Assembly (NCBI GenBank): GCA_963668695.2
Contig: CAXXLQ010000004.1
Location: forward strand, 2,080,001-2,144,000
Origin: Vicinamibacteria bacterium
GTDB taxonomy: Bacteria; Acidobacteriota; Vicinamibacteria; Marinacidobacterales; Marinacidobacteraceae
Reading direction: 5' to 3'
DNA length: 64,000 nt
Numbering within the stretch: position 1 is the stretch's first letter; each line of letters starts with the position of its first letter. Below are positions 30,563 to 46,436 of this stretch, in pieces. Under the pieces are notes generated by a model, which worked only from the letters and a program-made list of their open reading frames with translations, had not been told where the DNA came from and made no database searches. A program made the translations under genes and the position numbers.

Positions 30563-30636
30563 CGGGGCGTGGCTCAGTCTGGCAGAGCACCTGGTTCGGG
30601 ATCAGGGGGTCGCAGGTTCAAATCCTGCCGCCCCGA
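30563..30636 (+). tRNA. tRNA-Pro(CGG)
   Basis: CGGGGCG/CGCCCCG acceptor stem, CCTGG-TTCGGGA-TCAGG anticodon arm; TACAAT -10 at 30544. Confidence 0.96.
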
Positions 30637-31178
30637 CGCGGCCCGTCCCCCAGACGGTTCCGGCAGACGGGTTCCCCCAGACGGGTTCCCCCAGACGGGT
30701 TCGGCAGACGGGTTCCGGCAGACGGGTTTCGGCCCCGAGGCGGCCACGGCATCCGGCCGTTTCGGACGCATTTTTCCCCGCCCCTTCCCACCCAGGAAAG
30801 GGGTGGTCATTTCGGCACTCACCCATGGTTCAAAACGTGTATATTCCGGCGCTCTTGCCGGAGACAGTTCGTCCCGGCGGGTGCCCTTTTTCTTGCTCTT
30901 GCTTCTTGACATTCCCAAATCGGGTGTGATGGAGTTAGCTCGCATGTTCGCCCTGAGCGCCCCTGCCCATTCATTGGTCAGTGTGCGTTCGGAGCCTTAC
31001 TTCGCTGGGTTCTTGCCCCTTGATCCGGTCGCGCATATACTTGCCGCGCGGTTGGCTGGTGCGGGAACGCGGCGGTTTGCCTTGTCCTACCGAAGGTGGG
31101 AATGAATACACGAGACGGTACTTGGCCCCTCCGGGCTTTGAACTTGTCCCCAACGACCTACTACAGGAGGTAGGCGAA

Positions 31179-33113
31179 ATGACGCAGATCACAAGGAAGT
31201 CGGTCCCCAAGCGCGGGCTGATTCTCCTTCTTGCCATGTTCCTGGGTGCCGGTCTCGTGCTCTCGGGTTGCGGTGATGACGACACCACCACCACGCCGGC
31301 TCCGGCTCCGCCGCCGCCGCCAGCGCCAACTCCGGAACCCGAGCCCGAACCCGAACCCGAACCCGAGCCCGAGCCCGAGCCCGAGCCGACACCTTTCGAG
31401 GTGATGTTCATGATGCCGGACGGCGAAGTCCCGACTACCCGGATGGCGGAGAGGACGACGAGGCCACCGCCATGGCAAGGTCAACTCCGACATGATGGTT
31501 TCGGTGAACATGCCGGCCATCGTGTCGGCGACCTTCGTGAGGGCGCCAGCCCGATCGGCCTGATCCCGGGCGACAACTCGCCGTTCACCTACGTGAGCTG
31601 GAACGCCATGCAGAGCATGGTGGTCACCACCGGCGTCACCTTCGCGGTCCAGGCGGTGGAGATCGGGGCGAACCAGGTTGCGATCCCGATCGGCGACGCC
31701 ACCTTCGTGACCTGCGGTCCTTTCGAGTGCGCCATGGGCATGGACGCGCCGGAGATCTCGATCGCCAACTCGGCGGTCTGCAGCGGCTGGGATCCGACGG
31801 TGGACGCTCCATGTCGGCAAGGTCGACAACGACGTCTTTGACGACAAGCAACGGCGGACAACCGTGACGGACACCGCGGACGACGGGCATTGACCTCGGC
31901 TGGGTGACCAGTTCCACGGCCGCCATGACCGTGAGCACACTTCTCCGGTGTCGCGAAGGGCAGCAACTACAGCGTCCGGCCCGGACGCGTCCGAAGAAGG
32001 GTCCGACAGGAACCTCGCCGATGGACAAGGCGGCCGAGGACGACGGCGCCACTTGGGACGACAACGCAGGCTATGGCGCCGGTATCCAGATCAACGTCAC
32101 CGATGGATGATGGCGTGACACCGACCTACGCCTGGCGAGGCCGAGTCGTGTCCCGGAAGGCACCTACGGGACGAAACGATCGGTCTCCAAAGCCGGACAA
32201 CTGTTTCCGGCTCTCCGCCGCTGGTGCGGTCAACTACCTCGACGGCTACGGCATCGAACTTGCGGCCAAGGGTTCCGCGGTCACCTGGGGCAGCAAGGTG
32301 GACTGGGACGAGGATCCGTTCGAGGATCTCAAGTGCGATTCCATGACCTTCATGGCCACGGAGGCCATGGATGTGTGATCTGCGACATGTTCGAGAGGAA
32401 GTGGATCAGGCTCTGGCCGGCGGCTGGGGCGGCCGTACAACGGCGCTGTGGGCGTCACGATCGCGAGCCGGCAGGCCAGCTCGAACGCGAACAATGTCGG
32501 CAAGCTCGGCATGACGGACGGTGGGTGTCCCGGTGCTTCCGCCGATCGGTTCTCGACCCTCTGGTTCGACGACGACCTGGACGGCAAGATCCGAACAACA
32601 GTGCGTGGCGTTCACCACGGCCCGGAATGGGCGGCCTGAACGACCTCTACGACCAACAACGGCGACGAGCGCAACATCGAGGTCGTCTGGCAGTTGCTTC
32701 ACGACAAGGACGGCGACCCGAACCGCGGCGACTTCGGCAAGGTCGATCTTTGACGACCAGGCAACCAGCACAGCGGCCACGGACGAGGACGCATCCGGAC
32801 GGCAAGGCCGACAACTATGCATCCACCGACGACGCGCGGGCCTGCAGCAACGCTGACGGCGACGGTTGCGACGCTGAGTGGTCCGAGACCTTCGAGGTTC
32901 TGTTCGCGGACGGCGTCTTCGGTTGCACGACGAAGCGGGCCGTGACGGTCAGTTGCGAATGGGACGCCGACGGTGAGATGGGCCGCGCGTGGCCAGGACC
33001 ACGGCGACCACCTCGCTTCGACACCGCCGACTGGATTCTTTGCGGATGGACTCCACCGGAACCCCCGGACCCCTGGCTACATTGGCGCTTTCGCCAAGTG
33101 CACCGCGAAGTAA
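31179..33113 (+). CDS. Cys/Asp-rich surface lipoprotein, copy A (has RBS and start); several frameshifts
   Basis: GGAGG RBS, MTQITRKSVPKRGLILLLAMFLGAGLVLSG-C lipobox, PEPEPE linker; fragments in several frames align with 43125-44995; ends FAKCTAK*. Confidence 0.75.
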
Positions 33114-33159
33114 CTTCCTGAAAACGGCATCTGCGCTGAACCGTCGCTGAATCAAACGG

Positions 33160-33196
33160 GAACCCCGGGGCCATCCGGCCCCGGGGTTCTTCCTTT
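33160..33196 (+). terminator. Intrinsic terminator of lipoprotein A
   Basis: GAACCCCGGGGCC-ATCC-GGCCCCGGGGTTC followed by TTCCTTT. Confidence 0.85.
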
Positions 33197-34313
33197 GTTG
33201 TACGGCGCTGGCCGCTACCGGAACGGGACCCCCACCGCAGTGTTATGGGCGCCGAGGCACGCGAGCGCTGGGCCGTTCTCCCGGTGGAGCCCTTCAGACC
33301 GGCACTGCGGCCCGCAGGGCCGCGAAACCGCGTACGGCCGAGCGAGAAGAAGCGCGGGGACGGCTTGGAACGCCGGCCTCCGGCCGGCACCGCGCGGGAG
33401 CGCGAAACCAGCGCCGATGACGCTGCCGCCTGCTGGCGTGAGAGCGCCTTCTCCAGCCCCAGCGGGTACGGCGCCCCTTCGAACCGCATACCGAAAATCC
33501 CTGGACTCCGGACGGACTCGTCGTCCGCTCGAACGTCAACACTCACGCACCCGACAGCTTCACGGGTTGATTTCCACCACGGGAACGACGACCAGGCTCC
33601 CCCAAAAATCGGCAGTGGAAAAGAGTCCAAATCGCCACTGTCAACACAAAACGCAACACCGGATTACAGGCCGTGTAACGTCGGCGTGTCACTTACGACA
33701 GTCACGCCGCCCAGCCCGGGGCGTGCCGCGGCGGGGTCCGTCACCCGACCCGGGGACGGCGTTGGCGCGCTCGGCTGAACACGTTGCGCATTGATCGCGA
33801 CGGCGGGTGACGCTGCCCTACCGGGCGATGAAAGCATGGCCGCCTCCAGGCCGCACTCGTCTCGCCGCTCTTCCCGGAGCTCTACGGGATCCTCTTCGCC
33901 CTCCTGGCGAAGACGGCCTGAGACGCCGGCCCGCGGCCGCTGACGGTGGCTGACTGCGGAAGCGACGACGCCACGCTCACCGGGGACACGGAGGCCCGCC
34001 GACACCGCACACCCCAACCCCTCGATTGTCGGGCGCGTTCCGCCCCGAGGCGGCTCCCGGCCGTCACCGCGCGCCCAGACGCGCCGATTCGTACTCGGGC
34101 CCGCGACGCGGCCCTCCGCGTGTTCCTGGGGCCGCTGAGAGCGGATCAGAGGGCCGGCGCTCCCGGGCCGCGAGAGAGCCGGGCGGAGCGGCACCGCAGG
34201 AAGGAACCGTTGCAATTGCCGCGGGAACCTACCTAGCCGCGCCGGCGTGCGGCGGGCTAGTTCTCGCCGGGACGAAGCTCGCCGGTTTCCTCGTTGTCCC
34301 CGGCGGCGTTGTC

Positions 34314-34655
34314 CTACCGGCGGCGGTTCTTCGCGGCGATGAACTCCTCGCGGCGCTTGTCAACCCGCGCCATGACTTCGGGAATTACATCGCCTTTTAG
34401 CTCCGACACGAAATGTCCAAGTCCTTGATCCGGCGTTTCGTTCGCTGGAGCGTTTTGGTTAACTGGCGCATTTCTTCCGGCGTAGCGCCCCGCATATCCA
34501 AGGGTTCTTGGCAGCGCTTCATGATTCTTTCTATCGCTTGATACGGCGTCGTAGATCAGGGTAGTCGCTACTAGCACTAGCAGGGATTCCCGGGCTTCGT
34601 ACGGCTCTTGGGTTGGATGTCCCTTTCTGCCTTTCCGTTTTGGGCGAATGGCCAT
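34314..34655 (-). CDS. Hypothetical protein in a lower-GC patch
   Basis: ATG after AGGAGG (minus strand); 113 aa; no recognised motif. Confidence 0.45.
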   Translation of the reverse strand: MAIRPKRKGRKGHPTQEPYEARESLLVLVATTLIYDAVSSDRKNHEALPRTLGYAGRYAGRNAPVNQNAPANETPDQGLGHFVSELKGDVIPEVMARVDKRREEFIAAKNRRR

Positions 34656-34759
34656 TGGTGGTGTCCTCCTGCACAAGGTCAGCAACAGGGTAGTGGGCCC
34701 GCGCTCGGGCTGCGGCGGCGGTCCGCGGTCCGCCCCGCTTTGGGGCGCCATGCTAACTC

Positions 34760-35483
34760 CACGGGCTGGAGTTGGTCCAGCGTAAGGAGAAGGTGGTTTT
34801 CCTGGGCCCTCCGGAGGTGGGGAAGACGCACCTGGCGATCGACCCGGAGAATCGAACGACCGAGCGGGGCCGGCGGGTGGTTTCCGGACCGCTGAGGGAT
34901 TTGGTCGGGTCGCTCGAGGGGGCGGACACGAAGGGGGCAGTTGCTGCGCCGGCCGCGGATCCTTACCCACCTCGCCCTCCTGGTGGTGGACGAGAGCGGC
35001 TACCCGCCGGTGACCCGGAACGGGGCCACGCTCTTCTTCCAGCTCATCAACGAGCGTTACGAGCGGGCGTCCACGGTGCTGACTCGAGCAAGGGGTTCGA
35101 GGAGTGGGGGGCGATCCTCGGAGATGAGGTGATGGCGGCGGCGCTCTGGATCGGCTGCTCCACCACTGCCACCTCGTGAACATCCGGGGGAACAGTTACC
35201 GGATGGGTGACCGCCGCAACCTGGCGCGGGCACTGCATCAGGGCCCGGCGAGAAAGAACCCCGAACAAGGGCCGGCTACCCAAGCGGAGACGCCCCGGTA
35301 AAGCGGCACGCGCGTCGGGCGCGGATCTCCGGTCGCTCCGCTCCCTCCGTCCGCGCCCGACGCGCCTATCCCGGAACTCATCCTCCGCCGCCTATCCGAC
35401 CGAAACCCCTCCAGATCCCGTCAACCCACCCCTCCGCCGGCACCCAATCACCCCGAGTGGGACATTTTGGAAGCCCATTGACA
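34760..35483 (+). pseudogene. IS21-family IstB helper ATPase remnant plus right end
   Basis: Frameshifted VVFLGPP.VGKTHLA, LLVVDE.GY, LFFQLIN.RYER.S, SKGFEEWG.I.GDEV.AAA, LLHHCH.VNI.G.SYRM; ends ...CATTGACA. Confidence 0.85.
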
Positions 35484-35570
35484 CAAGGAGGTAGAGGCGA
35501 TCCGGCAGCCTCAACGCGGCGTTCGACCGGCGATGGCAGAGGGGCTGATCTTCATCGGGTTCTGCGTTGA

Positions 35571-35652
35571 GCCGACTTTCCCCACAGTGGGACGGCCGGG
35601 CGTGGGTTTCACCAAGAAGTCACCCCGGGTTCCGTCTGTATATGGTGGAGGA
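35571..35652 (+). promoter_or_regulatory. Conserved upstream motif plus RBS of the coiled-coil family
   Basis: GCCGACTTTCCCCACA...TTCCGTCTGTA...GGAGGA. Confidence 0.55.
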
Positions 35653-35766
35653 GTTCCCCAGTGACCGAACGAACCACTGAAATGCCGGAGACCGGAGACC
35701 GGGGTCCGATTGCCGCAGGGGCCGGACCGTTTCTATACTCCCTCAGGTGATCGACAGGGATACCCG

Positions 35767-36093
35767 ATGACGGGTGCGCGGAGGGGGGAGTTCGCCGGGC
35801 GCAACGCACCGTCCAGGGAACCGCTCACCCGGACAGAGCGGCTCTTGGTCACGATGTTCGTCACCATGTTTGCGACGATGCTCGGGGCCGGCGCGCTCGG
35901 GTTCACGGCGATCAGCAGTCAACTTCTGGACATGCAGAAGCAGATCGGCGGCGTGCAGGCCGAAATCGGCAATCTCCGCACGGAGATGCACAAGGAGATC
36001 GGCGACCTCTCCAACCGCATCACCCGCGTCGAAACGTTGATCCAGGCGCACCTCGTTCCACGGTCGGGCGCGCCGCCCGCGGCGGGCCCCTGA
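35767..36093 (+). CDS. Small TM plus coiled-coil family protein
   Basis: SREPLTRTERLLVTMFVTMFATMLGAGALGF...QKQIG...RVETLI. The upstream GTG 35661 is out of frame because of a 7-bp duplication. TTGCCG-N18-TATACT at 35710-35739. Confidence 0.78.
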   Translation: MTGARRGEFAGRNAPSREPLTRTERLLVTMFVTMFATMLGAGALGFTAISSQLLDMQKQIGGVQAEIGNLRTEMHKEIGDLSNRITRVETLIQAHLVPRSGAPPAAGP

Positions 36094-36368
36094 ACCCTGC
36101 GCGCCTCGGTCAGGTCACACCGGAATCGTCCGCGCTCCCTCCAGGGTCCGCTCGTGTGCGACCGGGATGAGCAGTTCGCCAGCGGGACGCCTTGACCTAG
36201 CCCACCGACGGGGTCCTCCGCCTCATGGCGGGGCGCCCATGCCCATGACCCGCACCCCGGGGTTTCAATGGCCGGCTCGTCCGCGATGTCGACGAACCAG
36301 GGACGGTCCGGGCTCGCGAGGGGGCGGCGATCCTTCAGTCTGCGAAGCGCTGTTCTTACGGAATCGAG

Positions 36369-36500
36369 GGCGACTTCTTCGCAACTCAACTGTAGACCGG
36401 AAAAAAGTCGGCACGGATTCCGTCTCGGATCCGGATCGCCACGTTTGCGGGGTTGGTCACCATGTTCGCTGCGATGCTCGGGGCCGGCGCGCTTTGGGTC
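36369..36500 (+). pseudogene. Degenerate remnant of the coiled-coil family (motif plus TM-coding piece)
   Basis: GGCGACTTCTTC...GGAAAA-N16-CGTCT, then TTGGTCACCATGTTCGCTGCGATGCTCGGGGCCGGCGCGCT. Confidence 0.55.
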
Positions 36501-37144
36501 CGTCGGCGGAACGCGGTTCCGCCCGCGTGCGGCGGGCTGCCGGCCCCCACCCGGAGAAACCCGCATGATCGGGTCCGCCCGTTCACCCCGCCCGCATGAA
36601 AAAGGTGATGCAGCACTCACGTTGGCCGGGCCCGGCGTCACCGAAGCAGGTTTCGCGCTCCCGCGCGATGCCGGCCAGAGGCCGGTGGCCAGTTCTCCCG
36701 GTGGGGGCCCGCTGTCGTGCACCGTCTTGGCCCCAGAGGTACGCGCCGAGAAGAGAGCCATCCCGGCGGTTGGGGTCTGCCGGTTGGGGTCTCTGCCGCC
36801 GCGGCCCTGCGGGCCGCTGTGCCGGCCCCCACCGGGAGAACTGGCCGGAGGTCGGCGTTCCAAGCCGTCCCCGCGCTTCGGCTCAGTCAGCTAGACGCGG
36901 TTCCGCCCGCCTGCGGCGGGCTGCGCCGGGCTGAAGGGCCCCACCGGGAGAACTGCCCAGCGTTCCCTGCCTCTGCACTGGCGTGCCGGTGTGAGGCCGG
37001 GGTTCCCAGCCTCTGCACTGCCAGACGAACTGAGCCGTACATAGAAAACACCCGCCGGGGCGGGTGTCACGGGGAGCGACGATTGCCGCTCCCCGTGGGG
37101 TTCCGGCCGATTTTGGCCGGGGTCAGGTGATCGTCAGGTAATCG

Positions 37145-37480
37145 TCAGCTTGAGGCGTTGATCGAGGTCACCGTGATCGTGTTGGTCGCCTCGTCGAGGG
37201 TGCCCATCACCGTGACTTCCATGCCCAGGTGCTCCAGCGCTGCCTCGTTGGTGATGTCGAGGAGGTGGAAGCCGTCCGGGCTCGCGAGGGCCACACTGTC
37301 GCCCCCGTTCAGGCAGGCGGTGGCGCAGCCCTTGTGGGCTTCGTTGCCGGCCTTGGCGAAGTCCTTCGCGCAGGCCTGATCGGCGACCCAACCGGTGAAG
37401 GTCATGTCCTCGGCGGCGGCCGAGGCGACGAAAGCGCCGCAGGCGAGCAGCGCGAGGGCGAGGATGAGGAGTTTCTTCAT
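37145..37480 (-). CDS. Small secreted protein (OB-fold-like, CxxxC)
   Basis: Signal peptide MKKLLILALALLACGAFVASAAA; G.V.D..C...H..CA.AC...G...V.V.GT pattern; downstream hairpin at about 37068-37097. Confidence 0.75.
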   Translation of the reverse strand: MKKLLILALALLACGAFVASAAAEDMTFTGWVADQACAKDFAKAGNEAHKGCATACLNGGDSVALASPDGFHLLDITNEAALEHLGMEVTVMGTLDEATNTITVTSINASS

Positions 37481-37599
37481 CTGGGTTGTCCTTGATGGCT
37501 GGGACGCCCCGCAGGGCGTGCCCGGAAAGTAAAGGGAGGCGCGCATTGTACCCGGATGGGGGCCAGGGCGACACGGGGTTCTGAGCGCCTCCGGGTACG

Positions 37600-37632
37600 A
37601 AAAAAGCGGGGGCGGCCGAAGCCGCCCCCGCC
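37600..37632 (-). terminator. Intrinsic terminator of the FN3 lipoprotein
   Basis: GC-rich stem GCGGGGGCGG/CCGCCCCCGC followed by a T6 run on the minus strand. Confidence 0.75.
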
Positions 37633-37654
37633 GGGTCTTGCTCGTCAGAAGGTG

Positions 37655-39613
37655 CTAGTTCGTCGTCGTCGCCGGGGTTGGATGGTATAGGCGGAACTGA
37701 AGGCCCACGGGCCAAACCGGGTCTCGTCTCAGCTTCGCCCGAACGCAGACGTTCATACTCGCTGGGTTCCGCACTCTGGGAGTGGTCCCCGTAATCGCTC
37801 GGTCGGGCCGAGGCTGGTCGCCGACCCGGATGATGATTCCGTCCGGGTCATTCGAAATGCTGTTCGGCGACCACATCCGCGATGGTCCACTGCATCTGAT
37901 CACCCTGCGAGCCGCTCTCCGAGAGATCGCAACCGCCGATGGTCGGAGCGGTCACGGTGTCGTCCTTGAGCTCGTCCGCGTCGTCGCCGTTCGTACCGGC
38001 TGGGATACTTGATGGACTTCACCGTGTAGTCATCGTCCATCCGGGGCACGTCCAGGTCGTTGCGAACCGACACGCTCCACACCGGTGAGGCCATGGTATC
38101 CGTCACGTTGGTAAGGGAAGTTGCGATCCGGGGTGTGTTCGGTCTGGCTGGCAGCGTGACTACGTCGGCATTGGAGGGCGGGACCACCCAGTTCGTCGCA
38201 CCGCCGTCGTTCATCAGTCGGAAACACAGCAGATACCCGGTGTAGGCCTGCAGGCTCCGGTCGAGCGTGATCTCGCCGAACATGATGTCGATGTCGGAAT
38301 CGCCGCTGTCCAACTGCGTGCCGGCGGTGCAGGCGTCCTGCACCTTGTCTGCCATCGTCATATCGGTGATCTTGTTGTCTCGGTGCGGATCGGCGGCTAC
38401 GCGGAAGTCGTAGTCGAATCCAGCCTTGATTGTGATCATGCTGATGCTCCAGGTAATGGCGGTGGTCTGGTCGCGCATCGCGTCGTCGCTGGGCACGCCC
38501 ACGGCGGGCTCGTCAGGCGGCATCGCCACGCCCTTCAGGAACGACATGTGCTCCTTGTCCTTCGTGCGAACGCACAGACTCCCAGCTTCTCCCGAGCCGA
38601 CCGTGAGTGGATGCCACGTCGCCAACGCTCCTGCCGTGGGTGAGTCGTACGTCGCAGTCTCACACGCTTTGGCGCTCGTGGCCGTCTGCAACCTCGTATT
38701 CCGTCCCGGAAATCTGATCCCAAGCGAAATTGATCATGGTTTCGCTATCACTGGTCCAGATGAGGTTCAGATCACCGGACCCCATGACGACGGCCGGGCC
38801 GGTGTCGTCCGCGGTCGTTGCGTCGGTCTCGCTCCAGGAACTCGCGGTATGAGCGTCATCGTCCGAAGCGGGCACGGCGCGGACGCGGAACTCGTAGTCG
38901 GTCTCCGGAGTAAGGCCGGTCGCGACGCAGGAGGTGTCCTCCGTCGAACCGCTGCCGCCCTCGCCGCAGGTCGCGTCGCTCCACGAGCCGGTGCCGTCAA
39001 CACGCTGCTCCACCTCGTAGGTTGCGGCGTTCCTCACGTCGTCCCAACTGAGGTTCACCGTGGTCTCACCGGGATTCGATGCGCCCAGGTCGCCCGGAGC
39101 GGAGAGTGGGGCGGCCGGTGGCGGGGCGCTGGTCGTCCCCTGGCGTCCGTCGCTCCAGTCGCTGAAGGTCAGATCGGTCAGGGAAGTCCCGGTGCCGGAA
39201 CGCACCCGGAAATGCCCGGTCATGTTGCCGGGCAGGTTCTCCAACCGGTGGGAGGTCTTTGGGGCGACGGATCAGACACGTCCGGTCGGCTGTCCGTGAA
39301 GGTGGTGTCGTGCTGAACTGGCCCTGGTAGCCGAGCACGCCCTCAACCGCATCCCACGTCCAGGTTATGGAGTTGGAGGTAGCCGCTGACACCCGAACAT
39401 TGCTCGGGCGTTGCGGGACCCGTCGGCTCAGGCTCCGGCTCCGGCTCCGGTGGGTGTGGGGTGGGCGTCGGGGTTGGTGCCGAGCGCCGGGGTGGTCGGA
39501 GCCGGAACCTCTTCGTCCCCGCAGGCCGAAATCATGAGGCCGGCGCCGAGCAGCAGCGCGAGCAACGGGGCCCACCCGCCGACGGATGTGAACTTGCCAG
39601 TGAGCGACTTCAT
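37655..39613 (-). CDS. Fibronectin type III repeat surface lipoprotein; several frameshifts
   Basis: Lipobox LMISA-C; FN3 patterns SNSITWTWDAVEG..GY and TVNLSWD.V..A..Y...GLTPETDYEFRVRA. Confidence 0.72.
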
Positions 39614-39864
39614 GCGACCTACCTCCCGGTGCGGTGCGTGCGGACCAAGTTGAACAAGGTCCAGGCCGATATAGATATGCCCCCAGCCTACCACACTTTG
39701 GGGCCGTTCTTCTACCGCAACCCCGGCGCGCGCGGGGTGCCGGTGAGGGCGTAATTCATGCCCTCCAGATCCTGCAAGAAGCCCATTCTATGCGCTTTCG
39801 AGACGCATTTCCGCCACAACCGGGAGCCGCACCGGACCGGCGGCGGCATGGCATCCGATCCCCG

Positions 39865-40800
39865 TCAGGGGGTGTCGCCTCCGAGAGACGTACTGCAGAC
39901 GGGCCGTTCGGGTGGCGGGAGGGGTTCGCCCTCCGCGAAGACGCGGCAGGCGACGTTCGAGCAGAGTTGGGCCGGGCCGCGTCCCGGGTCGGGACACGGC
40001 CGGAACCGGAAGTCCCATTCGAGGCGGGTCAGCTTCCACCGGACGGTTAGCTCGTGCCGGAAGCCGGCGCCGGCAGGTTCGCTGCGGATGCTCAGGATCT
40101 GTGACGTCGGGTCCGGATCCAGGCGCAGGAAATCCGCCGTGTCCGACTCCACGGTGATGTCCGTCTCGTAGATTCCATGTTGGCAGGACGCCCCGCCTTG
40201 GGACCGGCGCGGCGTGGCGGTGGTCAATCGCACCCCCGAGCACCGGTCCGCCCCGTCGAGGATCACCACCTCGATCTCGGCTCTTCGGAAGGCCACCCGG
40301 ACCGGCCATCCGTAGCGAACGCTTTCCGCGGGGTCGGTTTCGGTGGAAAGGCGGAGCCGCAGGGTTTCCCGTTCTTCCGAGAGGCCGTCCTCCCGCGCCC
40401 GGACGGGGATCACCGCGATGTCGCTTACGGGTGGGGTCCTTCCCGCACCCCATCCATAGACAGCCACCCGCCTCGCCACCACGACATCCTCAGGGGATCC
40501 GCTCTCACCTTCGACGGTGACGCGCAGCGGAACCGTCAGTTGATGGAACCAGGCGCGGCTGAGATTGATGTCGGCGTCGAACCGCACCTCCAGCGGGATG
40601 GTCTGCCCTTCCCGGATCTCGACGCGCTCCTGCGCGAACCCGACCACGATGTCCCCTTCCGGATCGGGCGGCGGCTCCGGAGGCGGAGGCGGTGCGGGCG
40701 TCACCGGGGGCGGCGTGACGGCGGGGGGCGCGGACGGTCCGGAATCGCCGCACCCCCAGACGCAAACGGCGCCCACAACGAAGGCCAGGGCCCGTTTCAA
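39865..40800 (-). CDS. Lipoprotein with a Calx-beta-like domain (paralog of 62806-63741)
   Basis: VWG-C lipobox, Pro-rich linker, VGF....EIREG, A.EDGL.E..E.L.L.L, IEVVILD; Cys-containing C-terminus. Confidence 0.7.
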   Translation of the reverse strand: MKRALAFVVGAVCVWGCGDSGPSAPPAVTPPPVTPAPPPPPEPPPDPEGDIVVGFAQERVEIREGQTIPLEVRFDADINLSRAWFHQLTVPLRVTVEGESGSPEDVVVARRVAVYGWGAGRTPPVSDIAVIPVRAREDGLSEERETLRLRLSTETDPAESVRYGWPVRVAFRRAEIEVVILDGADRCSGVRLTTATPRRSQGGASCQHGIYETDITVESDTADFLRLDPDPTSQILSIRSEPAGAGFRHELTVRWKLTRLEWDFRFRPCPDPGRGPAQLCSNVACRVFAEGEPLPPPERPVCSTSLGGDTP

Positions 40801-40801
40801 C

Positions 40802-41911
40802 TCAGTTCTCCTCGGGTCGCACGTGGATCGTGAGCGGCCCGCTCCGGCTTCCGGCGCGCACTTCGACCGCGCCGAGCACCGTGGTCTCCGGGAACTCCAG
40901 GGTGGCTTCCGGCAACAGGGACTGGTGGGCGCGGGGGATCAGGATGGGATGGACCTTGACGAGATATCGGCCCGGCTCGAGTCCCTCGATGGAAAAGGAA
41001 CCGAACGAGTCCGTGAAGGCGCTCACCCCGAACCGGGACGGCTCCCCGTTCTCGATCCGGCTGGCCAGCACGAGCGCGGAGCGCACCGAGCTTCCATCGT
41101 CCTGAAGGGCAATGCCCCAGAGGCTGCCCGTGGCCTCAAGCCACCCGGCGCGCGGCCGCAACAGGGAGACCCCCACCGCGTCGTCGGGAGTGATCAGGTC
41201 GAGACGACCGCTGCCGTAGCTCACCTCGAACCTCCGGGTGGGGTTCACGCCGTAGGACATCACCGGATCGAGGCCCAGTTGCACTTCGGAGAGCTGCTCG
41301 CGGAATCCGATGTCCGGATACGCCGCCGAATGGCTGAGGCCCAGGCAGTGCCCGAACTCGTGGACCAGGACATAGACCAGGTAGGCGCTGCCGAGACGGT
41401 TGGAGCCGGTCGGGTAGTGATCGGGAATCGTGACTTCGCAGCGGGAGAGGATGATGCGCTCACCGATTCGGCGGATCCGAGCTCCGCCTCTCGCCCGCCC
41501 CAGCGGTCCTTCGTCCGTCAGGGTCACGAACAGGCCGTTTTCAGCGCCCTCGTAGACATCGGGGCTGACCAGCCCGACGGTGAAATCGAGATCCGCGGTT
41601 TCGATTTCGGACCAGTATCCAAGGGCGTCCTCGGTCAGCCGCTTGACTCGCTCGAAGATGGCCGGACCCCAGGTCGGGTCCTCCACGATCCCGACCTCGA
41701 CCGTTTCTCCCAGCGGCCAGAAGTCCGAATCCCAGGTCACGAACGGGGGCCACGAGGAGGCAGTGACGACCGTGTTGTGGGGGCCGAAGCCGAGGAAGCG
41801 GTAGGCGGCCGCTTGATGGGGGAGCGAGCCAGCGGCCAGGAGGAGGGCCGCGAGGGCGGCCTGGAGGAGGATCCCGGAGAGACGGCGCGGCTTCTGTCGC
41901 GTGCGCTTCAC
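40802..41911 (-). CDS. Matrixin/metzincin-like Zn protease with a C-terminal carboxypeptidase-regulatory-like domain
   Basis: Signal peptide, HEFGHCLGLSH, Met-turn PVMSY, G.F.I.GL.PG.Y. Confidence 0.85.
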   Translation of the reverse strand: MKRTRQKPRRLSGILLQAALAALLLAAGSLPHQAAAYRFLGFGPHNTVVTASSWPPFVTWDSDFWPLGETVEVGIVEDPTWGPAIFERVKRLTEDALGYWSEIETADLDFTVGLVSPDVYEGAENGLFVTLTDEGPLGRARGGARIRRIGERIILSRCEVTIPDHYPTGSNRLGSAYLVYVLVHEFGHCLGLSHSAAYPDIGFREQLSEVQLGLDPVMSYGVNPTRRFEVSYGSGRLDLITPDDAVGVSLLRPRAGWLEATGSLWGIALQDDGSSVRSALVLASRIENGEPSRFGVSAFTDSFGSFSIEGLEPGRYLVKVHPILIPRAHQSLLPEATLEFPETTVLGAVEVRAGSRSGPLTIHVRPEEN

Positions 41912-42344
41912 GGGGACCAACGATACGCCCTCGGAAGGCGCGGAGTGTTTCCGGCAGGGGGAGCCGTGAGCGGTTGCCGTCCAGCATCCGGAGAGCGTGC
42001 GGCACTGACGTTGGCAGAGGGCAGCGTCATCGGAGCTGGTTTCGCGCTCCCGCGCGATGCCGGTCGGAGGCCGGCGCTCCGCTGTCGCGCGCCGTGCGGG
42101 TGAGTGGCGGAGGGAGTTTCGCCCGCTGTGCGGGCGATGCCGGTCTGAAGGGCCCCACCGGGAGAACTGGCCAGCGCTCCTGACGTGCGCCGTGCGGGTG
42201 AGTGGCGGAGGGAGTTTCGCCCGCTGCGCGGGCGATGCCGGCGATGCCGGTCTGAAGGGCTCCACCGGGAGAACTGCCCAGCGCTCCAAGCCGTCCCCGC
42301 GCTTCTTCCCGGTCAGCGGTACGCGGCTTCACTACCCGCGTACA

Positions 42345-42381
42345 TACAGAAGAACCCCGGGGCCGGATGGCCCCGGGGTTC
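42345..42381 (-). terminator. Terminator after cassette C (same hairpin as after copy A)
   Basis: GAACCCCGGGGCCATCCGGCCCCGGGGTTC on the minus strand. Confidence 0.8.
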
Positions 42382-42424
42382 CCGTTTGATTTCAGATCAG
42401 ACGGTTTTCAGGAGACGCAGATCC

Positions 42425-42928
42425 TTACTTCGCCGAGCACTTGATGTAGTTGCTTCTGTTGTTGTCGTCGTTGGCTGCGGCGCTGTCGAGGTCAGCGGCG
42501 TTCGGCAAAGCGTTGCGGCCCTGCGTCATTCCGCCATCGGCATCCCACTCACAGGTGACCGTGATGGCCCGGGTCGTGGAGCAACCGAAGGTGCCGTCCG
42601 CGAACAAGATCTCGATGTCGTTCTCCCAGGTCGCGTCGCACTCGGAGCCGTCAGCGTCGTCGCCGCCGTCGTCCTCGCTGCAACCGCGGAAGTCGTCAGC
42701 ACCCGCCAGGCCCGTCGGATAGTTATCCGCCTTGCCGTCAGGATTCAACGCCGTCCTGCCCGTTTGCTCCGTCGCTTCGGCGCCTTCGCATCCAGTATCA
42801 ATACCGGCGGCGTTTGTCGCCACCCAATCGACGCCCGAGGCGCACGCCTCGAGCACAATCGTGGTCTCGTTGTCGGCGGTCCTGGCGTTGTCCAAGTCGC
42901 TGATCATGTCGACCTTGCCGAGGTCGCC
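42425..42928 (-). pseudogene. Cassette C: orphan 3' part of the surface lipoprotein
   Basis: Begins at GDLGKVD; contains PDGKADN, CDA.W, LFADG.FGC.T.R, CEWDADG and ends IKCSAK*; no signal peptide. Confidence 0.8.
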
Positions 42929-43051
42929 CGCCATCCTGAAGGCCGGCGTTCCTTGGCTGCGCGCATTCTGTCCCGCGGGGGGACGTGCCGAGAGGGGCGC
43001 CATCCAGGAACAGGGCGGTACGCGGTTTTGCGGCGGTCACGACCCGCGTAC

Positions 43052-43088
43052 AAAGGAAGAACCCCGGGGCCGGCTGGCCCCGGGGTTC
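43052..43088 (-). terminator. Terminator after cassette B
   Basis: GAACCCCGGGGCCAGCCGGCCCCGGGGTTCTTCCTTT on the minus strand. Confidence 0.8.
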
Positions 43089-43124
43089 CGGTTGGGTTCA
43101 GCGAATCAGACGCAATGTCCAATC

Positions 43125-44995
43125 TTACTTAGCCGTGCACTTCGCGAAGCGCCCGATTCTGTCCTGCGCGAGTTGCCGCGTCCCTCATCGCTGCTCCGCA
43201 GCGCGTTGTCCTCTCACCACTCGCGTCCCACGTGCAACTGATCGTCACGCTGCGGGTCGTCGTGCAGCCGTAAAGGCCGTCCGCGAACAGAACATCGAAG
43301 GTCTCGGACCAGGAAGCGTCGCCTGTTCCGTCGGCGTCATCGCCGCCGTCGTCCTCGGTGCAGGCCCGGACATCACCCTGGGTGCTCGCGGCGGTAATGT
43401 TGTCCGCGTTGCCGTCCGGGTTCCCAGGCGTCGTCGTCTCGTCCGCGCCGGTTGCCAGGTTGTCGCGGTCGCTGACCAGATCAACCTTGCCGAAGTCGCC
43501 GCGCATCAGGTCGCCGTCCTTATCGAGCACGGACTGCCAGATCACCGTGACGTTGTCCGTCGGGCCGTCCACTGCGTCCTCGCTCTCGTCGTAGAGGTCG
43601 TTCAGCATTCCCCGGCCGTAGGTGAACGCAGGCGTCCCCTTCTTCGGGAGCTTGCCGTCCAGGTTGTCGTCAAACCACAGGGTCTTGAAGCGGTAGGACG
43701 AAGCGCTGCGCGCACCGGCCCGCCACTCTGTCACGGCGGCTTCGTCGCCGGTACCGGTCACGATGACGCTGGCCCTTGCCGCGATCACCGCGGTCGGTCG
43801 AATCCCCGTCACCGTTGGCATCGCCAACCCAACCCGCCTCAAGGGCCTGGTCCACTTCCATCTCGAACATCGAGCACATATCCGCCTGGTCCATGGCCGC
43901 GAAGGTCATCGCGTCGCAGGTCAGATCCTCAAACGGATCCTCTTCCCACTCGACTTCACCCCAGGTCACGGTGGAGCCCATGGCGCCAAGCTCGACCGAG
44001 TAACCATCGATGTACTTCGGACTTCCAGCTACCCGGAAACACGTATCGGGCTCGTCAATTCCACGGTCTCCCGCAGTTGGACTGGAGTCCGCCATGTAGT
44101 CCGAGCAGACGAGTGCGTTGGCGTCGTCGATCACGATGGCACCCTTGTAGTCGGTGTTGTCGGTGTTGGCGTTACGGTCAGGATCGTCCGCGGGGGCGGC
44201 GTCCGGAGCACCCTTGTCCATCGCCAGGAGCGAGATCGCTGCCCTTTCCGGCGCTCCGACCCGCGACGTTGAAGTTCGTGCCGCCCTCGACACCGGAGAA
44301 CTGGTGTTCGACGGTCATCCCGACGCTGGACGACGTCAGCCAACCCACGTCGACTCCGTCGTCGTCGACGCCGGGTGGGAGCACATCGTTGTCAACCCGC
44401 CCGACCTGCAGGGTGAGGGACGGATCCCAAGCGTTGCAGACCGCCGAGTTGGCGATCGAGATCTCCGGCGCGTCCATGCCCATGGCGCACTCGAAAGGAC
44501 CGCAGGTCACGAAGGCGGCGTCCCCGATCGGGATCGCAACCTGGTTCGCCCCGATTTCAACCGCCTGGACGGCGAAGGTGACGCCGCTGGTGACCACCAT
44601 GCTCTGCATGGCGTTCCAGCTCACGTAGGTGAACGGCGAGTTCGCGCCCGGAATCAGTCCGATCGGGCTGGCGCCCTCCACGAAGGTCGCCGACACGATG
44701 GCCGGCATGTTCACCGAAACCATCATGTCGCTGTTCACCATGGCCATGGCGGTTTCCTCGTCGTCGTCCCCATCCGGGACCAGCGGGGTTTCGCCGTCCG
44801 GAATCATGAACATCACCTCGAAAGGTGTCGCCTCGGGTTCCGGCTCGGGCTCGGGCTCGGGTTCGGGTTCGGGCTCGGGTTCCGGAGTTGGCGCTGGCGG
44901 CGGCGGCGGAGCCGGAGCCGGCGTGGTGGTGGTGTCGTCATCACCGCAGCCCGAGAGCACGAGACCGGCACCCAGGAACATGGCAAGAAGGAGAA
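43125..44995 (-). pseudogene. Cassette B: near full-length paralog of lipoprotein A lacking its first ~14 codons and RBS; frameshifts
   Basis: Identity to A starts abruptly at 44995 (= A 31222); ends FAKCTAK*. Confidence 0.75.
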
Positions 44996-45176
44996 CCTTT
45001 CCGCCTCCCCCCCACGGGAATGCCACCTGACCAGCACCACGGTTTGCCCCATATATTTGGCGGCCTGTGCGAATGCGAACTCCCCGTAGAAACTCCCTTT
45101 TCCCCGAGAGTTATGCCTCGGGTGCAGATCCCCAGGTTGATCGGGAGCAGGCTTCGCGCCGACCCGTCTTGGCAAC

Positions 45177-46436
45177 GTGACAACCACGTCGCGAAAGCGC
45201 GTCGCCAGGGTCAAGCTGACCCTGACCAAGCGAACGGTCGAGGCCCTGCAGCCCGCCGAGAAGCCCTGGATCGCTTGGGACGACAAGCTGACCGGCTTCG
45301 GGGTTCGCGTCCAGCCCTCCGGCACCAAAGCCTTCGTCGTCAACTACCGGGTCGGACCGGGAGGGCGGAGAGCTCCCAACAAACGCGTCGTCATCGGCCG
45401 TTACGGCCTGGTTGCGCCCGATCAGGCGCGGCGCCTCGCGCAGGAAATCCTGGGCCGGGTCGCCGGAGGCGCCGACCCCGCGCAGGAGCGCGCGAACCGC
45501 CGCGGCATGCCGACCCTCGCCGAGGCCTTCGACGATTACCTGGCCGCGAACCCCACGAGGAAGTCCAGCACCGAGACGCTCTACCGCGGCCAGATGCGCT
45601 ACTGCCTCGGCGACTGGCTCTCACGGCCGCTCGACACGATCACCCGCCGGGACGTGGAGGCGCGCTTCCACCGGATCTCCGAACGGCACGGCTGGGCGGT
45701 GGGGAACCACGCGACCTCCCTGCTGCGGTCGGTGTACCGGAGGCCGTGCGTGGATTTCGAGGGCCTTCGCAACCCCGTCGAGCTGTGGCTCGCCGGCGGC
45801 GGGCGCTACAACCGCACGGTGCGCCGGCGCATCGGGCCCCCGGCGGAGCTGCTGCCGCGCTGGCGCGCGGGCATCGAAGCCGAGGTGCTGGTTCCGGCGA
45901 CGCGGGACATCTTCTGGCTGGGGATGTACACCGGCATGCGCCGGGGCGAGATCCTGACCCTGCGCTGGGATCGGGTGAATCTCGCGGGGCGTATCCTGCG
46001 GGTCGAGGAAACCAAGACCGGAGAGCCGCTGGAACTTCCCGTTACGCGTCAGTTGGCGGCCATCTTCGAGCGGCGGCGGGTTGATGCCGCGGGGTCGAGA
46101 TCGCGGCCCCGGGGCTGGGTGTTTCCGTCCGCGAACAGCGCGTCCGGCCACATCGAGGAGCTTCAGCATCTCTATGACCGCATCGGAGCGGCGGCGGGAA
46201 CGAAGTTCTGGTTCCACGGCTTGCGGAACGCCTTCATCACGGTGGCGGAGCGCGACCTGATGCTGCCCCGCTCGCTCACCAAACGGCTCGTCAACCACGC
46301 GAGGCGGCGCGACGTGACGGAAAGTTACGCCGCCGAGTGGACCGTGGAACAGCTTCGCGAACCCGCCCAGCGGGTCGCGGACCGGATCGACGAGCTGATC
46401 CACGCCGCCGACGACGGGTCCGCGGCGCGCGGCTGA
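45177..46436 (+). CDS. Tyrosine recombinase/integrase with N-terminal arm-binding domain
   Basis: WD..L.GFGVRV..SG.K.F arm domain; TGMRRGE (R), TKTG (K), HGLR, NH and ESY catalytic residues. Confidence 0.93.
   Translation: MTTTSRKRVARVKLTLTKRTVEALQPAEKPWIAWDDKLTGFGVRVQPSGTKAFVVNYRVGPGGRRAPNKRVVIGRYGLVAPDQARRLAQEILGRVAGGADPAQERANRRGMPTLAEAFDDYLAANPTRKSSTETLYRGQMRYCLGDWLSRPLDTITRRDVEARFHRISERHGWAVGNHATSLLRSVYRRPCVDFEGLRNPVELWLAGGGRYNRTVRRRIGPPAELLPRWRAGIEAEVLVPATRDIFWLGMYTGMRRGEILTLRWDRVNLAGRILRVEETKTGEPLELPVTRQLAAIFERRRVDAAGSRSRPRGWVFPSANSASGHIEELQHLYDRIGAAAGTKFWFHGLRNAFITVAERDLMLPRSLTKRLVNHARRRDVTESYAAEWTVEQLREPAQRVADRIDELIHAADDGSAARG

Follow-up and report, generated by a model that had tools for sequence, protein, structure and literature searches.

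A candidate acidobacterial locus for exchanging surface lipoprotein bodies at a single expression site

We describe a locus, located in a window of 64,000 nucleotides of acidobacterial DNA (the whole stretch that was analyzed), which looks like a system for changing the surface coat of the cell by recombination. In our preferred reading, to which we give a probability of about 0.5, lipoprotein bodies are exchanged at one expression site by integrase-mediated site-specific recombination, here by a 13.8-kb inversion that would swap two bodies, A and B. An expression site next to a tRNA-Pro(CGG) gene, consisting of promoter, ribosome binding site (RBS), ATG and the first 14 codons, would drive a surface lipoprotein. 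Alternative bodies, each spanning from a fixed point to a conserved terminator hairpin, would join the expression site at this one point within the signal-peptide codons (nt 31222, motif TTCTCCTTCTT...). Bodies away from the expression site are devoid of its promoter and start, and most of them face a divergent P4-like integrase gene across the junction. The source genome has just two junctions, which are inverted and 13.8 kb apart; body A adjoins the expression site at one, and body B the integrase at the other. Recombination between the junctions would invert the interval and bring B under the promoter and A next to the integrase, which would probably alter the exposed, variable part of the lipoprotein. 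An earlier note on this DNA had proposed surface variation by one expression locus, start-less inverted paralogues and a linked tyrosine recombinase. Comparative support for this outline is strong, but the mode of exchange and the role of a third copy, C, differ from the proposal.

Results

The expression site is bordered on its left by tRNA-Pro(CGG) (30563-30637, plus strand; ARAGORN), which adjoins the full-length 5' region in all five loci examined (the source genome G000, and its relatives G001, G014, G004 and G008). One sigma70-like promoter match is found upstream of A (31013-31041, plus strand), with 0.2 expected from shuffled sequences. The 5' part of the site (31166-31221, plus strand) contains the RBS GGAGG (31166-31170), the ATG at 31179 and the first 14 codons MTQITRKSVPKRGL, and A (31179-33113, plus strand) starts with a lipoprotein signal peptide ending in LSGC, in agreement with the RBS, start codon and signal peptide noted earlier. 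A contig from an RNA library covers positions 30983-31234 with 0 differences and a depth of 225, with the bins on both sides below 1. Cassette body A (31222-33113, plus strand) is joined to the expression site and is followed by a conserved terminator-like hairpin (33158-33191, plus strand). The body has no continuous open reading frame in the source assembly, where 11-18 frame changes are needed, and the claim that A is an intact expressed gene therefore cannot be read from this assembly.

Cassette body B (43125-44995, minus strand) forms an inverted repeat with A (31222-31835 versus 44995-44383), in which 567 of 618 positions are identical (92%, with 9 gap letters); the ungapped repeat arms are 95% identical, and outside the repeat identity is about 67%. 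The edge of homology is nt 31222, inside codon 15 of A, and we found no sequence common to A and B upstream of 31222/44995. B consequently lacks the promoter of A and, as had been described, its RBS and first 14 codons. There is no promoter-like match within 42200-45300. A possible in-frame GTG for B is located at 45026, so that the absence of a start is not absolute, and RNA-library contigs map to B's part of the window as well. B is followed by the conserved hairpin (43058-43089, minus strand), as are A and C. Fragment C with its hairpin (42352-43003, minus strand; C at 42425-43003, hairpin at 42352-42381) represents the C-terminal third of a cassette only: it is one open frame covering positions 528-697 of the 697-position family profile. 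C had been put forward as a silent cassette, but it has no junction motif and resembles a gene remnant more than a cassette that could be used. The previously listed sequence blocks (GDxGKVD, PDGxADN, LFADGxxGCxTxR and CxWDAxG) are invariant columns in an alignment of 41 family proteins. A search of the 4.1-Mb source genome for further family copies, suggested as a check with the original proposal, returned three only, A, B and C.

The interior cargo between the junctions (36903-42289, minus strand) codes for a DUF5818-like lipoprotein (37148-37546), for an fn3 lipoprotein of a second family (37903-39613) and for a matrixin-like metalloprotease (39868-42289). On the far side of B, an intact tyrosine integrase of 419 amino acids (45177-46436, plus strand), present in a single copy in the source genome, is oriented divergently from B and starts 182 nt from its junction. 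The tyrosine recombinase of the earlier note is thus present and linked, but its kind is P4-like with an arm-binding domain (Pfam Arm-DNA-bind_3, 61.5 bits; Phage_integrase, 53.2 bits), and relatives carry several per locus. The intervening flank (44996-45176, class I-c) is shared with the orthologous module of G001 and contains a C7/G7 run (45007-45013).

The junction is marked by the core motif TTCTCCTTCTTGCC, whose first copy (31222-31235, plus strand) is the start of homology to all other copies, and whose second copy (44982-44995, minus strand) is inverted relative to the first and 13.8 kb away. These two exact 14-nt matches are the only ones in the window and in the source genome; with up to 2 mismatches, 3 matches are found in the window and 0.30 are expected from shuffles. 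We compared a 331-nt query spanning the junction with 16 genomes of the genus. The upstream/start region of A has exactly one match in 13 of the 16 genomes and two in none; the 3 genomes without a match consist of 110-410 contigs each. Partial matches start at exactly query base 223 (nt 31222) in 32 of 41 cases, 3-11 nt earlier in 8 and 19 nt later in 1. At all 24 junctions in the fetched loci, the shared sequence begins at the same nucleotide, with left flanks falling into at least five unrelated classes. No clear core with dyad symmetry was seen at the junction, which counts against the site-specific exchange that we favor.

Integrase homologues with 68-78% identity lie beside junctions in the relatives. 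At 12 of the 21 non-expression-site junctions scored, a homologue of the window integrase (5'-truncated in one case) starts across the junction at a distance of about 140-310 nt, and at a further 5 a second P4-like integrase is found at 240-249 nt; the remainder are 1 junction at a contig end and 3 without an integrase. An integrase within 140-310 nt across the junction thus accompanies 17 of 21 start-less copies.

In relatives, the reading frame runs uninterrupted from the junction to the conserved C-terminus in all 22 cassettes, including 20 of 20 start-less copies, which are still intact ORFs; this argues that they are under selection. In the class I-a copies (4/4), a TGA lies in frame two codons upstream of the junction, with no start beyond it. 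An in-frame ATG is located upstream of 4 of the 6 class I-b copies and of all 5 in class c3, and some such 'silent' copies may be expressed on their own. One could accordingly regard the copies as an ordinary paralogue family, each with its own promoter and a divergent signal-peptide n-region, with the homology edge reflecting a hydrophobic-core constraint plus gene conversion and the integrases being coincidental neighbors. In line with this are the upstream starts, the RNA-library contigs on B and genome G024, where tandem arrays give 41 family matches and such an integrase is absent. We nevertheless consider it improbable, as it conflicts with the sharp boundary, at one nucleotide, between invariant and unrelated sequence, the stop codons of class I-a, the non-random adjacency of divergent integrases, and the missing promoter-like match near B.

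Between G000 and G001, the region upstream of the expression site is 97% identical and the integrase module 87%, whereas the A bodies share 71% identity and the B bodies can be aligned over their first 620 nt only (76%). One pair of bodies with different flank classes is 88.9% identical over 1934 nt from the first nucleotide of the junction; bodies are thus uncoupled from their flanks. Comparison of related genomes, another check proposed earlier, revealed that G000 carries the interior block (36903-42092) in the opposite orientation to G001 and G004, with the tRNA/expression-site and integrase or right-flank anchors being collinear. G008 has the orientation of G000. In 6 of 6 same-contig cases (G000, G001, G008, G010 and two in G014), the copy beside the integrase has the opposite orientation to the expression site. 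A-type bodies occupy the expression site in G000, G001 and G004, and could represent a stable resident gene.

The first 600-750 nt of the bodies evolve in concert within a genome. Identity in this part is 92% in G000; in G014 it is 100% over 750 nt between the expression-site copy and its convergent neighbor, which differ beyond that point (86.7% overall), and the best N-terminal matches come from the same genome in G000, G010, G012 and G014. These observations, together with the drop in A/B identity beyond the repeat, would also fit homologous recombination or gene conversion between inverted paralogues, producing switching or mosaics with no involvement of the integrase. As the sole explanation we regard this as unlikely, because it accounts neither for the common start of homology in 32 of 41 copies with unrelated flanks nor for the integrase genes just across the junction. 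The idea that crossovers of A with B or C provide a new C-terminus can be kept as far as exchange at A's site is concerned, but whole bodies would be swapped at the fixed nt 31222/44995, and C has no such site. Mosaics may arise in addition through homologous crossovers within the conserved first 600-750 nt.

Several P4-like integrases per locus, some beside a relaxase, are found in relatives, so mobile elements are involved. A MobA/VirD2-like relaxase adjoins the second integrase type in G001, G013 and G012, and a direct-orientation series of cassette, integrase, relaxase, integrase, junction and cassette is seen repeatedly, an arrangement which fits element insertion as much as programmed switching. 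It is thus conceivable, though rather unlikely in our view, that the locus records insertion scars: integrase-bearing elements would prefer an att-like site in the signal-peptide codons, each insertion severing a gene from its promoter and start, with B being a decapitated gene beside an element end. There would be no programmed switching, and variation would arise over evolutionary time only, through element traffic. The integrase is indeed of the integrative-element type, and relatives with 62-67% identity occur in alphaproteobacterial MAGs that have no such lipoprotein; both count against our preferred reading. G004 has an expression site and one body but no integrase. Contigs from the same runs have a depth of about 15-30 in the interior (40.0-43.8 kb) and about 105-150 at both anchors, and the cassette content is therefore strain-variable. 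Insertion alone, however, would not be expected to leave the decapitated copies intact, or exactly one expression site per genome; no second att site or displaced 5' end was found anywhere in the G000 genome, simple integration cannot give rise to the consistently inverted integrase-adjacent copies, and the interval is inverted between genomes.

The source genome is a 4-contig MAG with an estimated contamination of 9.3%, and 5-6 of 55 conserved genes contain frame breaks. It comes from a sponge-associated acidobacterium. Frameshift-aware alignment to intact homologues placed 11-18 changes in body A and 2-3 in body B, all of +1 nt (for B, 3 with three of the four reference proteins, at about 44201-44225, 43753-43786 and 43146-43182), leaving 205 and 271 open codons from the junction, respectively. 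These breaks are probably consensus errors, because all copies in relatives are open; if they were real, the system would be dead in the strain behind the source assembly. The quality of the MAG, and the unusual degree to which A and B are frame-broken, could suggest that B and C are haplotype duplicates of A misplaced by the assembler. We consider this highly improbable: past the first 600 nt, B and C diverge strongly from A (67%), short contigs obtained independently from three runs are nearly identical to B and C (over 43219-43773 in B, 4 substitutions and 3 gap letters; over 42623-43067, 1 substitution), and G001, G014, G008 and G010 share the architecture of tRNA-Pro, expression site, inverted cassette and integrase. 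No read or contig with both orientations in one population was found, which counts against switching by inversion, the contigs being too short to bridge the 600-nt repeat; the 15 contig joints listed, of 216, all lie in abundant REP-like repeats.

Discussion

The locus appears to resemble the vsa and vpma systems of Mycoplasma and the 5'-swap shufflons of Bacteroides. The vsa locus of Mycoplasma pulmonis encodes variable surface lipoproteins and has one expression site with promoter, start and 5' coding part; its silent genes lack the 5' part and share a short site within the coding sequence, at which they are linked to the expression site by inversion, and the recombinase gene HvsR is linked to the locus. 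All these elements have counterparts here: lipoproteins, a single expression site, 5'-less silent genes, an in-gene site and a linked recombinase gene. In contrast to vsa, the recombinase of our locus is a P4-like integrase of 419 aa that has an arm-binding domain, the loci of relatives each contain several integrases, which belong to two types and in some cases are accompanied by a relaxase, and the organism is an uncultured acidobacterium for which inversion is seen between related genomes.

Integrons also combine a fixed platform carrying expression signals with promoter-less cassettes ending in a structured 3' element, and their tyrosine recombinase gene is divergent from the attachment point, features with parallels in our locus. 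Here, the attachment point lies within coding sequence, and the cassettes are not head-to-tail and mostly have their own integrase. An IntI-like assignment of the integrase was rejected, as it has no hit in NCBIfam and contains Arm-DNA-bind_3. The R64 shufflon (Rci), Campylobacter fetus sap, Borrelia vlsE and Neisseria pilE/pilS likewise vary a surface protein by DNA rearrangement from an unexpressed store. In the R64 shufflon, C-terminal exons are exchanged at numerous short sfx sites, vlsE and pilE undergo RecA-type gene conversion from partial cassettes, and in sap a promoter is moved by recA-dependent inversion. None of them is known to join whole bodies at a single signal-peptide point beside P4-like integrases.

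In vpma of Mycoplasma agalactiae, each gene has its own start and signal peptide and the promoter alone moves, whereas the junction described here lies inside the signal-peptide codons. Inversion switching of the several vpma surface-lipoprotein genes requires the adjacent site-specific recombinase Xer1 (PMC2268961). As far as that source describes the system, it shares with our proposal multiple surface-lipoprotein genes, an adjacent site-specific recombinase and inversion-based switching. The Bacteroides thetaiotaomicron BT1032-BT1053 shufflon contains the tyrosine recombinase BT1041, one full-length gene and 5'-truncated paralogues, with a short site in the 5' ends of the genes at which recombination shifts the full 5' part to other bodies (bioRxiv 10.1101/521070). 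On the account given in that preprint, these four components recur in our locus, which differs in its single lipoprotein bodies of an undescribed family, the conserved 3' hairpin boundary, and the mobile-element genes in relatives.

Our preferred reading implies that the integrase would catalyze the exchange, which would be reversible and frequent within a population, and that the lipoprotein would be surface-exposed. We infer that its variation would then serve the evasion of recognition by host, phage or grazer.

Anatomy of the locus

We analyzed the locus in its source genome, G000, a metagenome-assembled genome of 4.1 Mb in 4 contigs with 67% G+C (estimated completeness 91.7%, contamination 9.3%); one listed run containing part of the window is labelled a sponge metagenome. 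Gene A (31179-33113, + strand) is preceded by a GGAGG ribosome-binding site (31166-31170) and starts with an ATG at 31179. Its product begins MTQITRKSVPKRGLILLLAMFLGAGLVLSGC..., read by eye as a lipoprotein-type signal peptide, in agreement with the earlier note. Bacterial lipoprotein signals carry a lipobox, L-x-G/A-C, after a hydrophobic core, and LLLAMFLGAG followed by LVLSGC can be read by eye in A, in its paralogue B and in 22 copies from related genomes. A promoter-type scan gave one sigma70-like match upstream of A (31013-31041), and the left neighbour of A is a tRNA-Pro(CGG) gene (30563-30637), directly followed by four overlapping 13-14-nt units similar to CCCCCAGACGGGTT (30646-30727). 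B (44995-43125, - strand) is inverted relative to A; the stretch homologous to A begins at 44995 and extends to 44383, with 92% identity over 618 nt and 9 gap letters, and beyond it identity falls to ~67%. The two have no common sequence upstream of 31222 in A and 44995 in B, so that B indeed, as previously proposed, lacks the 5' part of A. We refer to this point, which lies inside signal-peptide codons, as the junction, to the promoter, ribosome-binding site, ATG and first 14 codons as the expression site, and to the sequence from the junction to the 3' hairpin as the body or cassette. A run of seven C (45007-45013; G on the B coding strand) separates an out-of-frame ATG from the signal-peptide codons of B. 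One extra G here would bring this ATG in frame, and the run could be either an assembly-error site or a slippage tract.

The third copy, C (42425-43003, - strand), consists of an open frame corresponding to no more than the last quarter of the family profile. It had been taken for a silent cassette; its 3' nature stands, and we regard it as a site-less remnant. A, B and C all end in KC..K and a stop codon followed by the same GC-rich hairpin with a T-rich tail, as noted before. Homology of the cassette 3' ends stops abruptly after this hairpin and the following TTCTTCCTTTGTACG (33086-33205, 42340-42455, 43040-43152, and 40 places in loci of relatives), making the cassettes sharp-edged at both ends. 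A, B and C are the only family members in the G000 genome, which adds no further 5'-truncated cassettes.

A fixed junction across the genus

We compared all 16 genomes of the genus using a 331-nt query spanning the sequence upstream of A and the start of the shared region. Exactly one match containing the upstream part was found in 13 of the 16 genomes and two in none, the 3 genomes without a match being fragmented into 110-410 contigs. Another 41 matches reach the shared part: 32 start at query base 223 (nt 31222), 8 start 3-11 nt earlier and 1 starts 19 nt later. In all five loci checked (G000 and the relatives G001, G014, G004 and G008), tRNA-Pro(CGG) adjoins the full-length copy. We then read 24 junctions base by base, and in every one TTCTCCTTCTT... 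begins at the identical nucleotide. The sequence opposite is an expression-site flank in 3 cases, an integrase-side flank of class I-a in 4, of class I-b in 6 and of class I-c in 2 (this window and G001), a flank of class c3 in 5 and a singleton in 4, and these flank classes are mutually unrelated in sequence. A comparison with related genomes, suggested earlier as a check, thus returns a single expression site in most genomes and other copies that mostly begin at one fixed nucleotide. Because the edge is a single nucleotide and recurs across several flank classes, we interpret the switch from invariant to unrelated sequence as the trace of DNA broken and joined again and again at a specific site, an edge that neither constraint nor gene conversion would yield by itself.

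Each of the four class I-a copies carries an in-frame TGA two codons ahead of the junction, and none has a start codon beyond it. In-frame ATGs lie upstream of 4 of the 6 class I-b and all 5 class c3 copies, and some of these copies may therefore be expressed in place. The whole G000 genome contains exactly two junction motifs, inverted and bounding the interval between A and B, and searches on the right-hand side of the integrase and across the rest of this genome found neither a third junction nor a displaced 5' end.

The integrase and its linkage to junctions

The gene divergent from B (45177-46436, + strand) encodes a protein with an N-terminal PF13356 Arm-DNA-bind_3/DUF4102 domain (61.5 bits, cut-off 27) and a PF00589 Phage_integrase domain (53.2 bits, gathering cut-off 27.1, E 4e-14). 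It belongs to the tyrosine recombinase/phage integrase superfamily, as had been recognized from sequence reading, and is P4-like by its arm-type domain. Tyrosine recombinases use the catalytic residues R...H-x-x-R...Y; in the unaligned translation, judged by eye, we find motifs resembling box I (MRRGE), HGLRNAF and a late Tyr. The gene is single-copy in G000. Within the genus, 14 of the 15 other genomes have homologues 68-78% identical, one of them as many as 11 matches, and such homologues also occur in 4 of 12 genomes from other genera of the family; none was found in the 10 genomes searched from two neighbouring families.

At 12 of the 21 junctions outside expression sites, a divergent integrase of this type, in one case 5'-truncated, starts ~140-310 nt away. 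All five class c3 junctions instead have a second P4-like integrase (Arm-DNA-bind_3, Phage_int_M, Phage_integrase) at 240-249 nt, and of the remaining four junctions 1 lies at a contig end and 3 have no integrase. Homology between modules of the same class runs out near the integrase stop codon. Five further integrase copies (L032 ~6100, L034 ~8710, L035 ~550 and ~14975, L036 ~2695, in loci from relatives) lie downstream of a cassette, not beside a junction. Upstream of them lies a conserved region in which GTGATA occurs twice, together with a ~23-nt palindrome-like sequence, GGACACCGGTTCTCCCGTGTTCC, which includes the first six bases of the junction motif. We considered the TTCTCC-containing palindrome upstream of some integrases as a second att site with a displaced gene start and rejected it, the in-frame start not being consistent.

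P4-like islands typically carry the integrase next to a tRNA, with the 3' end of that tRNA directly repeated at the island boundaries. Here, the integrase lies 14.5 kb from the tRNA, no tRNA-derived att repeats were found near it, the best repeat of the tRNA-Pro region being 12 nt long, and the arrangement is not that of a tRNA-bounded island. Direct repeats of 240 nt at 29.4 and 47.2 kb were discarded as island ends; they are a REP-like element with >1,300 genome copies. This element, containing CCCACCGGGAGAACTG, has 1,325 exact copies, divided about evenly between the two strands, and forms clusters with 71-nt spacing. Its stretches in the window (29449-30228, 33248-33454, 36604-37011, 41998-42337, 47198-47435 and 52026-52706) reach depths in the tens of thousands in metagenome contigs.

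Exchange of bodies and inversion of the interval

The class c3 copy of G001 and a class I-b copy of G008 are 88.9% identical over 1934 nt from the first nucleotide of the junction in spite of their different flank classes, and three further cross-class body pairs are 79-81% identical over ~2 kb; bodies are thus uncoupled from flanks. Between G000 and its closest relative G001, the sequence upstream of the expression site is 97% and the integrase module 87% identical, whereas A and the G001 expression-site body are 71% identical, and B aligns with the body at the orthologous G001 integrase only in the first 620 nt (76%). We sought the ancestral expression-site body through orthology among G000, G001 and G004, the sequences being too diverged to decide. 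The first 600-750 nt evolves in concert within genomes: the G014 expression-site copy and its convergent neighbour are 100% identical over 750 nt and 86.7% overall, and A and B are 92% identical in this first part.

In all six cases where an expression site and an integrase-adjacent copy share a contig (G000, G001, G008, G010 and twice in G014), the two have opposite orientations. In addition, an interior block (36903-42092) containing a DUF5818-like gene, the second-family fn3 lipoprotein described below and the 5' end of a metalloprotease gene is inverted in G000 compared with G001 and G004, while the flanks, namely the tRNA-Pro/expression site and the integrase or a gene at 52.9 kb, are collinear in all three. 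The arrangement in relatives, another point raised previously, is thus not one fixed order. G008 has the orientation of G000 with different neighbours, and both orientations are therefore present in the genus. Like the anatomy and its conservation, the inversion is a direct observation; it is seen between species only, and bears most directly on exchange.

Integrase-bearing elements at the junction

In G001, the expression site and a body are followed by an integrase, a MobA/VirD2-like relaxase, a second integrase in reverse orientation, a c3 junction and another body, and all cassettes are in direct orientation. The integrase-relaxase-integrase unit recurs once in G013 and twice in G012. The G001 order fits docking, at the upstream junction, of an 8.4-kb element with a body at its start. 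Alternatively, a ~6-kb integrase-relaxase-integrase element may abut the junction of the downstream body with its end. We favour the ~6-kb element because A remains alignable with the G001 expression-site body over ~2 kb and with the G004 body over ~1.25 kb, at 69-73% identity. Under either reading, the end of an integrase-bearing element would coincide with the junction nucleotide.

Such elements could also have left the junctions as insertion scars only, with no switching of bodies. Two findings are consistent with this: G004 has an expression site and one body without an integrase, and mobile relatives of the integrases exist elsewhere. Integrases 62-67% identical are found in metagenome-assembled genomes titled Rhodospirillales, Alphaproteobacteria, Paracoccaceae, Defluviicoccus and unclassified 'bacterium' (L061-L063, L066, L068, L071; L062 on a 4.6-Mb chromosome record), with neither junction motif nor lipoprotein found near them, indicating that the integrases are part of a mobile lineage. 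We keep insertion scars as a rival to the best-supported reading, a single expression site whose bodies would be exchanged at the signal-peptide junction by linked integrases. A further-reaching and distinctly tentative idea, to which we give less than even odds, is that the cassettes are horizontally exchangeable parts: elements with integrase and relaxase would dock at one fixed point inside the signal-peptide codons of the host gene, and the chromosomal expression site would express whichever bodies are delivered or shuffled.

Frame breaks in A and B

In this assembly both A and B are split and neither is one open reading frame. In frameshift-aware alignments with four intact homologues, A requires 11-18 single-base frame changes, the number varying with the reference, and B requires 2-3, all +1 nt (3 with three of the four references). 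Two of these eight alignments, both against homologue P0005, are flawed, that of A retaining two in-frame stops and that of B missing the last shift. For a background rate, we used ORFs ≥300 aa long in 200 kb of G008, a relative assembled as one contig; 5-6 of their 55 orthologues in G000 are split between frames, corresponding to ~0.07 breaks per kb against ~5 per kb in A. The assembly thus contains indel errors or numerous pseudogenes, and its gene calls outside this locus should be treated with caution. The 22 cassettes examined in relatives all have an uninterrupted frame between the junction and the conserved C-terminus. Short contigs from other runs covering the variable part of A have a low depth (3-8) and differ from it by 23-34 substitutions per 490-630 nt and about as many gap letters (24-25). 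Those at 40.0-42.1 kb and 45.3-47.0 kb match the window near-exactly. Given the background breaks, the open cassettes of relatives and these gap-rich, low-depth contigs, we provisionally attribute the breaks to errors of the consensus where the region is heterogeneous. Should they be real, the system would have decayed in this strain; a near-identical intact B was sought in a large protein collection, where the best homologues are 65-74% identical.

Population and RNA evidence

Read-level evidence came from Logan contigs, mostly <1 kb long, and its interpretation is confined to the parts that they cover. Among the 15 joints listed of 216, all lie in REP-like repeats and none between A and B. 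In three runs, contigs matching at ≥99% have a depth of ~105-150 at 30.2-31.2 kb and 45.3-47.0 kb and only ~15-30 at 40.0-43.8 kb, indicating that the anchors are common to more genomes in these samples than this interior. When metagenomes were scanned with a 41-nt piece of the shared region, 3 contigs were returned, all from other strains, with no informative joints. One RNA-library contig covers 30983-31234 with zero differences at a depth of 225, the bins on either side being <1, although such depth cannot rank genes and DNA may occur in RNA libraries. Other RNA-library contigs lie on B-shared or B-specific parts, and none was found on the integrase gene at 45485-46118.

The cassette protein family

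A search with the C-terminal piece of B found relatives in 22 of the 24 other genomes from its GTDB family, with open frames of 620-900 aa and up to 41 matches in one genome, and none in 16 genomes of two neighbouring families. The large protein collection holds 69 longer homologues, most without a Pfam domain and some with fn3, named, where a name is given, 'hypothetical protein' and mostly from Acidobacteria metagenome-assembled genomes. An alignment of 41 proteins shows 11 invariant cysteines and many invariant Asp, Asn and Gly positions, and the body matches no Pfam or NCBIfam family. Two AlphaFold models have moderate confidence (pLDDT 74.8 and 75.4). The structure matches of the first were filled by an fn3 domain found in some relatives only and absent from A and B. 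Outside fn3, the best structural match, obtained with the AF2 model of P0005 (pLDDT 75.4, pTM 0.72), has Z 5.3 (rmsd 3.2, 89 aligned residues) and is a weak one to a generic beta-sandwich.

Neighbouring genes

A second lipoprotein family, with N-terminus MKS.TGK... and an fn3 domain, is represented in the invertible interval by a seemingly frame-broken copy (37903-39613, - strand). In three relatives (L031 2677/2921, L036 10640/10839, L047 7312/7487), a copy begins ~175-245 nt from a divergent integrase of the second type, and the G014 copy shows signal-peptide homology only from about residue 12 onward; a parallel system may thus exist for this family. Three paralogous small genes with a hydrophobic segment and a repetitive coiled-coil-like tail lie inside (35710-36090, +) and outside (28544-29059, +; 49564-50079, -) the interval, with related sequence near the G008 cassettes. 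Just right of the integrase, an AAA_21/AbiEii-like ATPase gene and an overlapping gene for a DUF4276 protein (47453-49317, +) possibly form a defence pair, the ATPase weakly resembling the MADS3 antiphage ATPase, with a score below the cut-off.

Relation to known systems and significance

We propose that there is one expression site, and that the lipoprotein body would be swapped at a fixed site in its signal-peptide codons, with the linked tyrosine integrases as putative agents. In G000, this would amount to a two-state 13.8-kb inversion placing either A or B at the expression site. The earlier observation thus holds in part, and so does its reading as recombinase-driven variation: the expression site, the start-less copies and the linked integrase are retained, while C now looks like a remnant and the joint is the fixed signal-peptide site. 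Catalysis by the integrases, and the reversibility, frequency and biological purpose of the exchange, are what we infer from these arrangements.

The Mycoplasma vsa system is among the closest analogues. The recombinases HvsR and Xer1 are small Xer/invertase-type enzymes that are not known to have an arm-binding domain. Our locus resembles vsa and vpma in having a single full-length 5' region (13 of 16 genomes, none with two), partial copies starting at the same nucleotide (32 of 41, with sequence shared in 24 of 24 junctions) and a linked recombinase gene. In systems of this type inversion is reversible and frequent, so that both orientations coexist in one population; at our locus the inversion is one between species. 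It differs in that its integrase has an arm-binding domain, and it would thus work like these systems without being a member by descent. The vpma/Xer1 system (PMC2268961) and the 5'-swap shufflon of Bacteroides thetaiotaomicron (bioRxiv 10.1101/521070) are also among the closest analogues. Recombinase type and multiplicity, relaxase-bearing elements, protein family and host lineage set our locus apart from all three.

We also compared the locus with integrons. Integron cassettes carry an attC-like structured 3' element used in recombination. Nearly every cassette here is followed by a conserved hairpin with a sharp 3' homology edge, which may be such an element but also resembles a plain terminator. 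An arm-binding domain is not known from IntI integrases; the window's integrase, which has one, matches no NCBIfam family and is not classed as IntI-type. If the cassettes were horizontally exchangeable after all, they would represent an integron-like capture platform built on P4-type integrases and working within coding sequence in uncultured sponge symbionts.

Surface lipoproteins that vary in a programmed way have been described chiefly in pathogens and in commensals of the gut, among them Mycoplasma, Borrelia and Bacteroides. Our literature search, with incomplete journal coverage, turned up no report of a system of this kind for sponge symbionts or Acidobacteria. If our reading is correct, the principle of one site and swappable cassettes would extend to an uncultured marine animal symbiont, a sponge-associated acidobacterium, with a testable pair of site and integrase and a crossover inside a signal peptide. 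It would also point to a surface protein family under pressure to vary, be it from the host, phages or grazers, and, given the link to relaxase-bearing elements, strains might possibly trade their surface coats.
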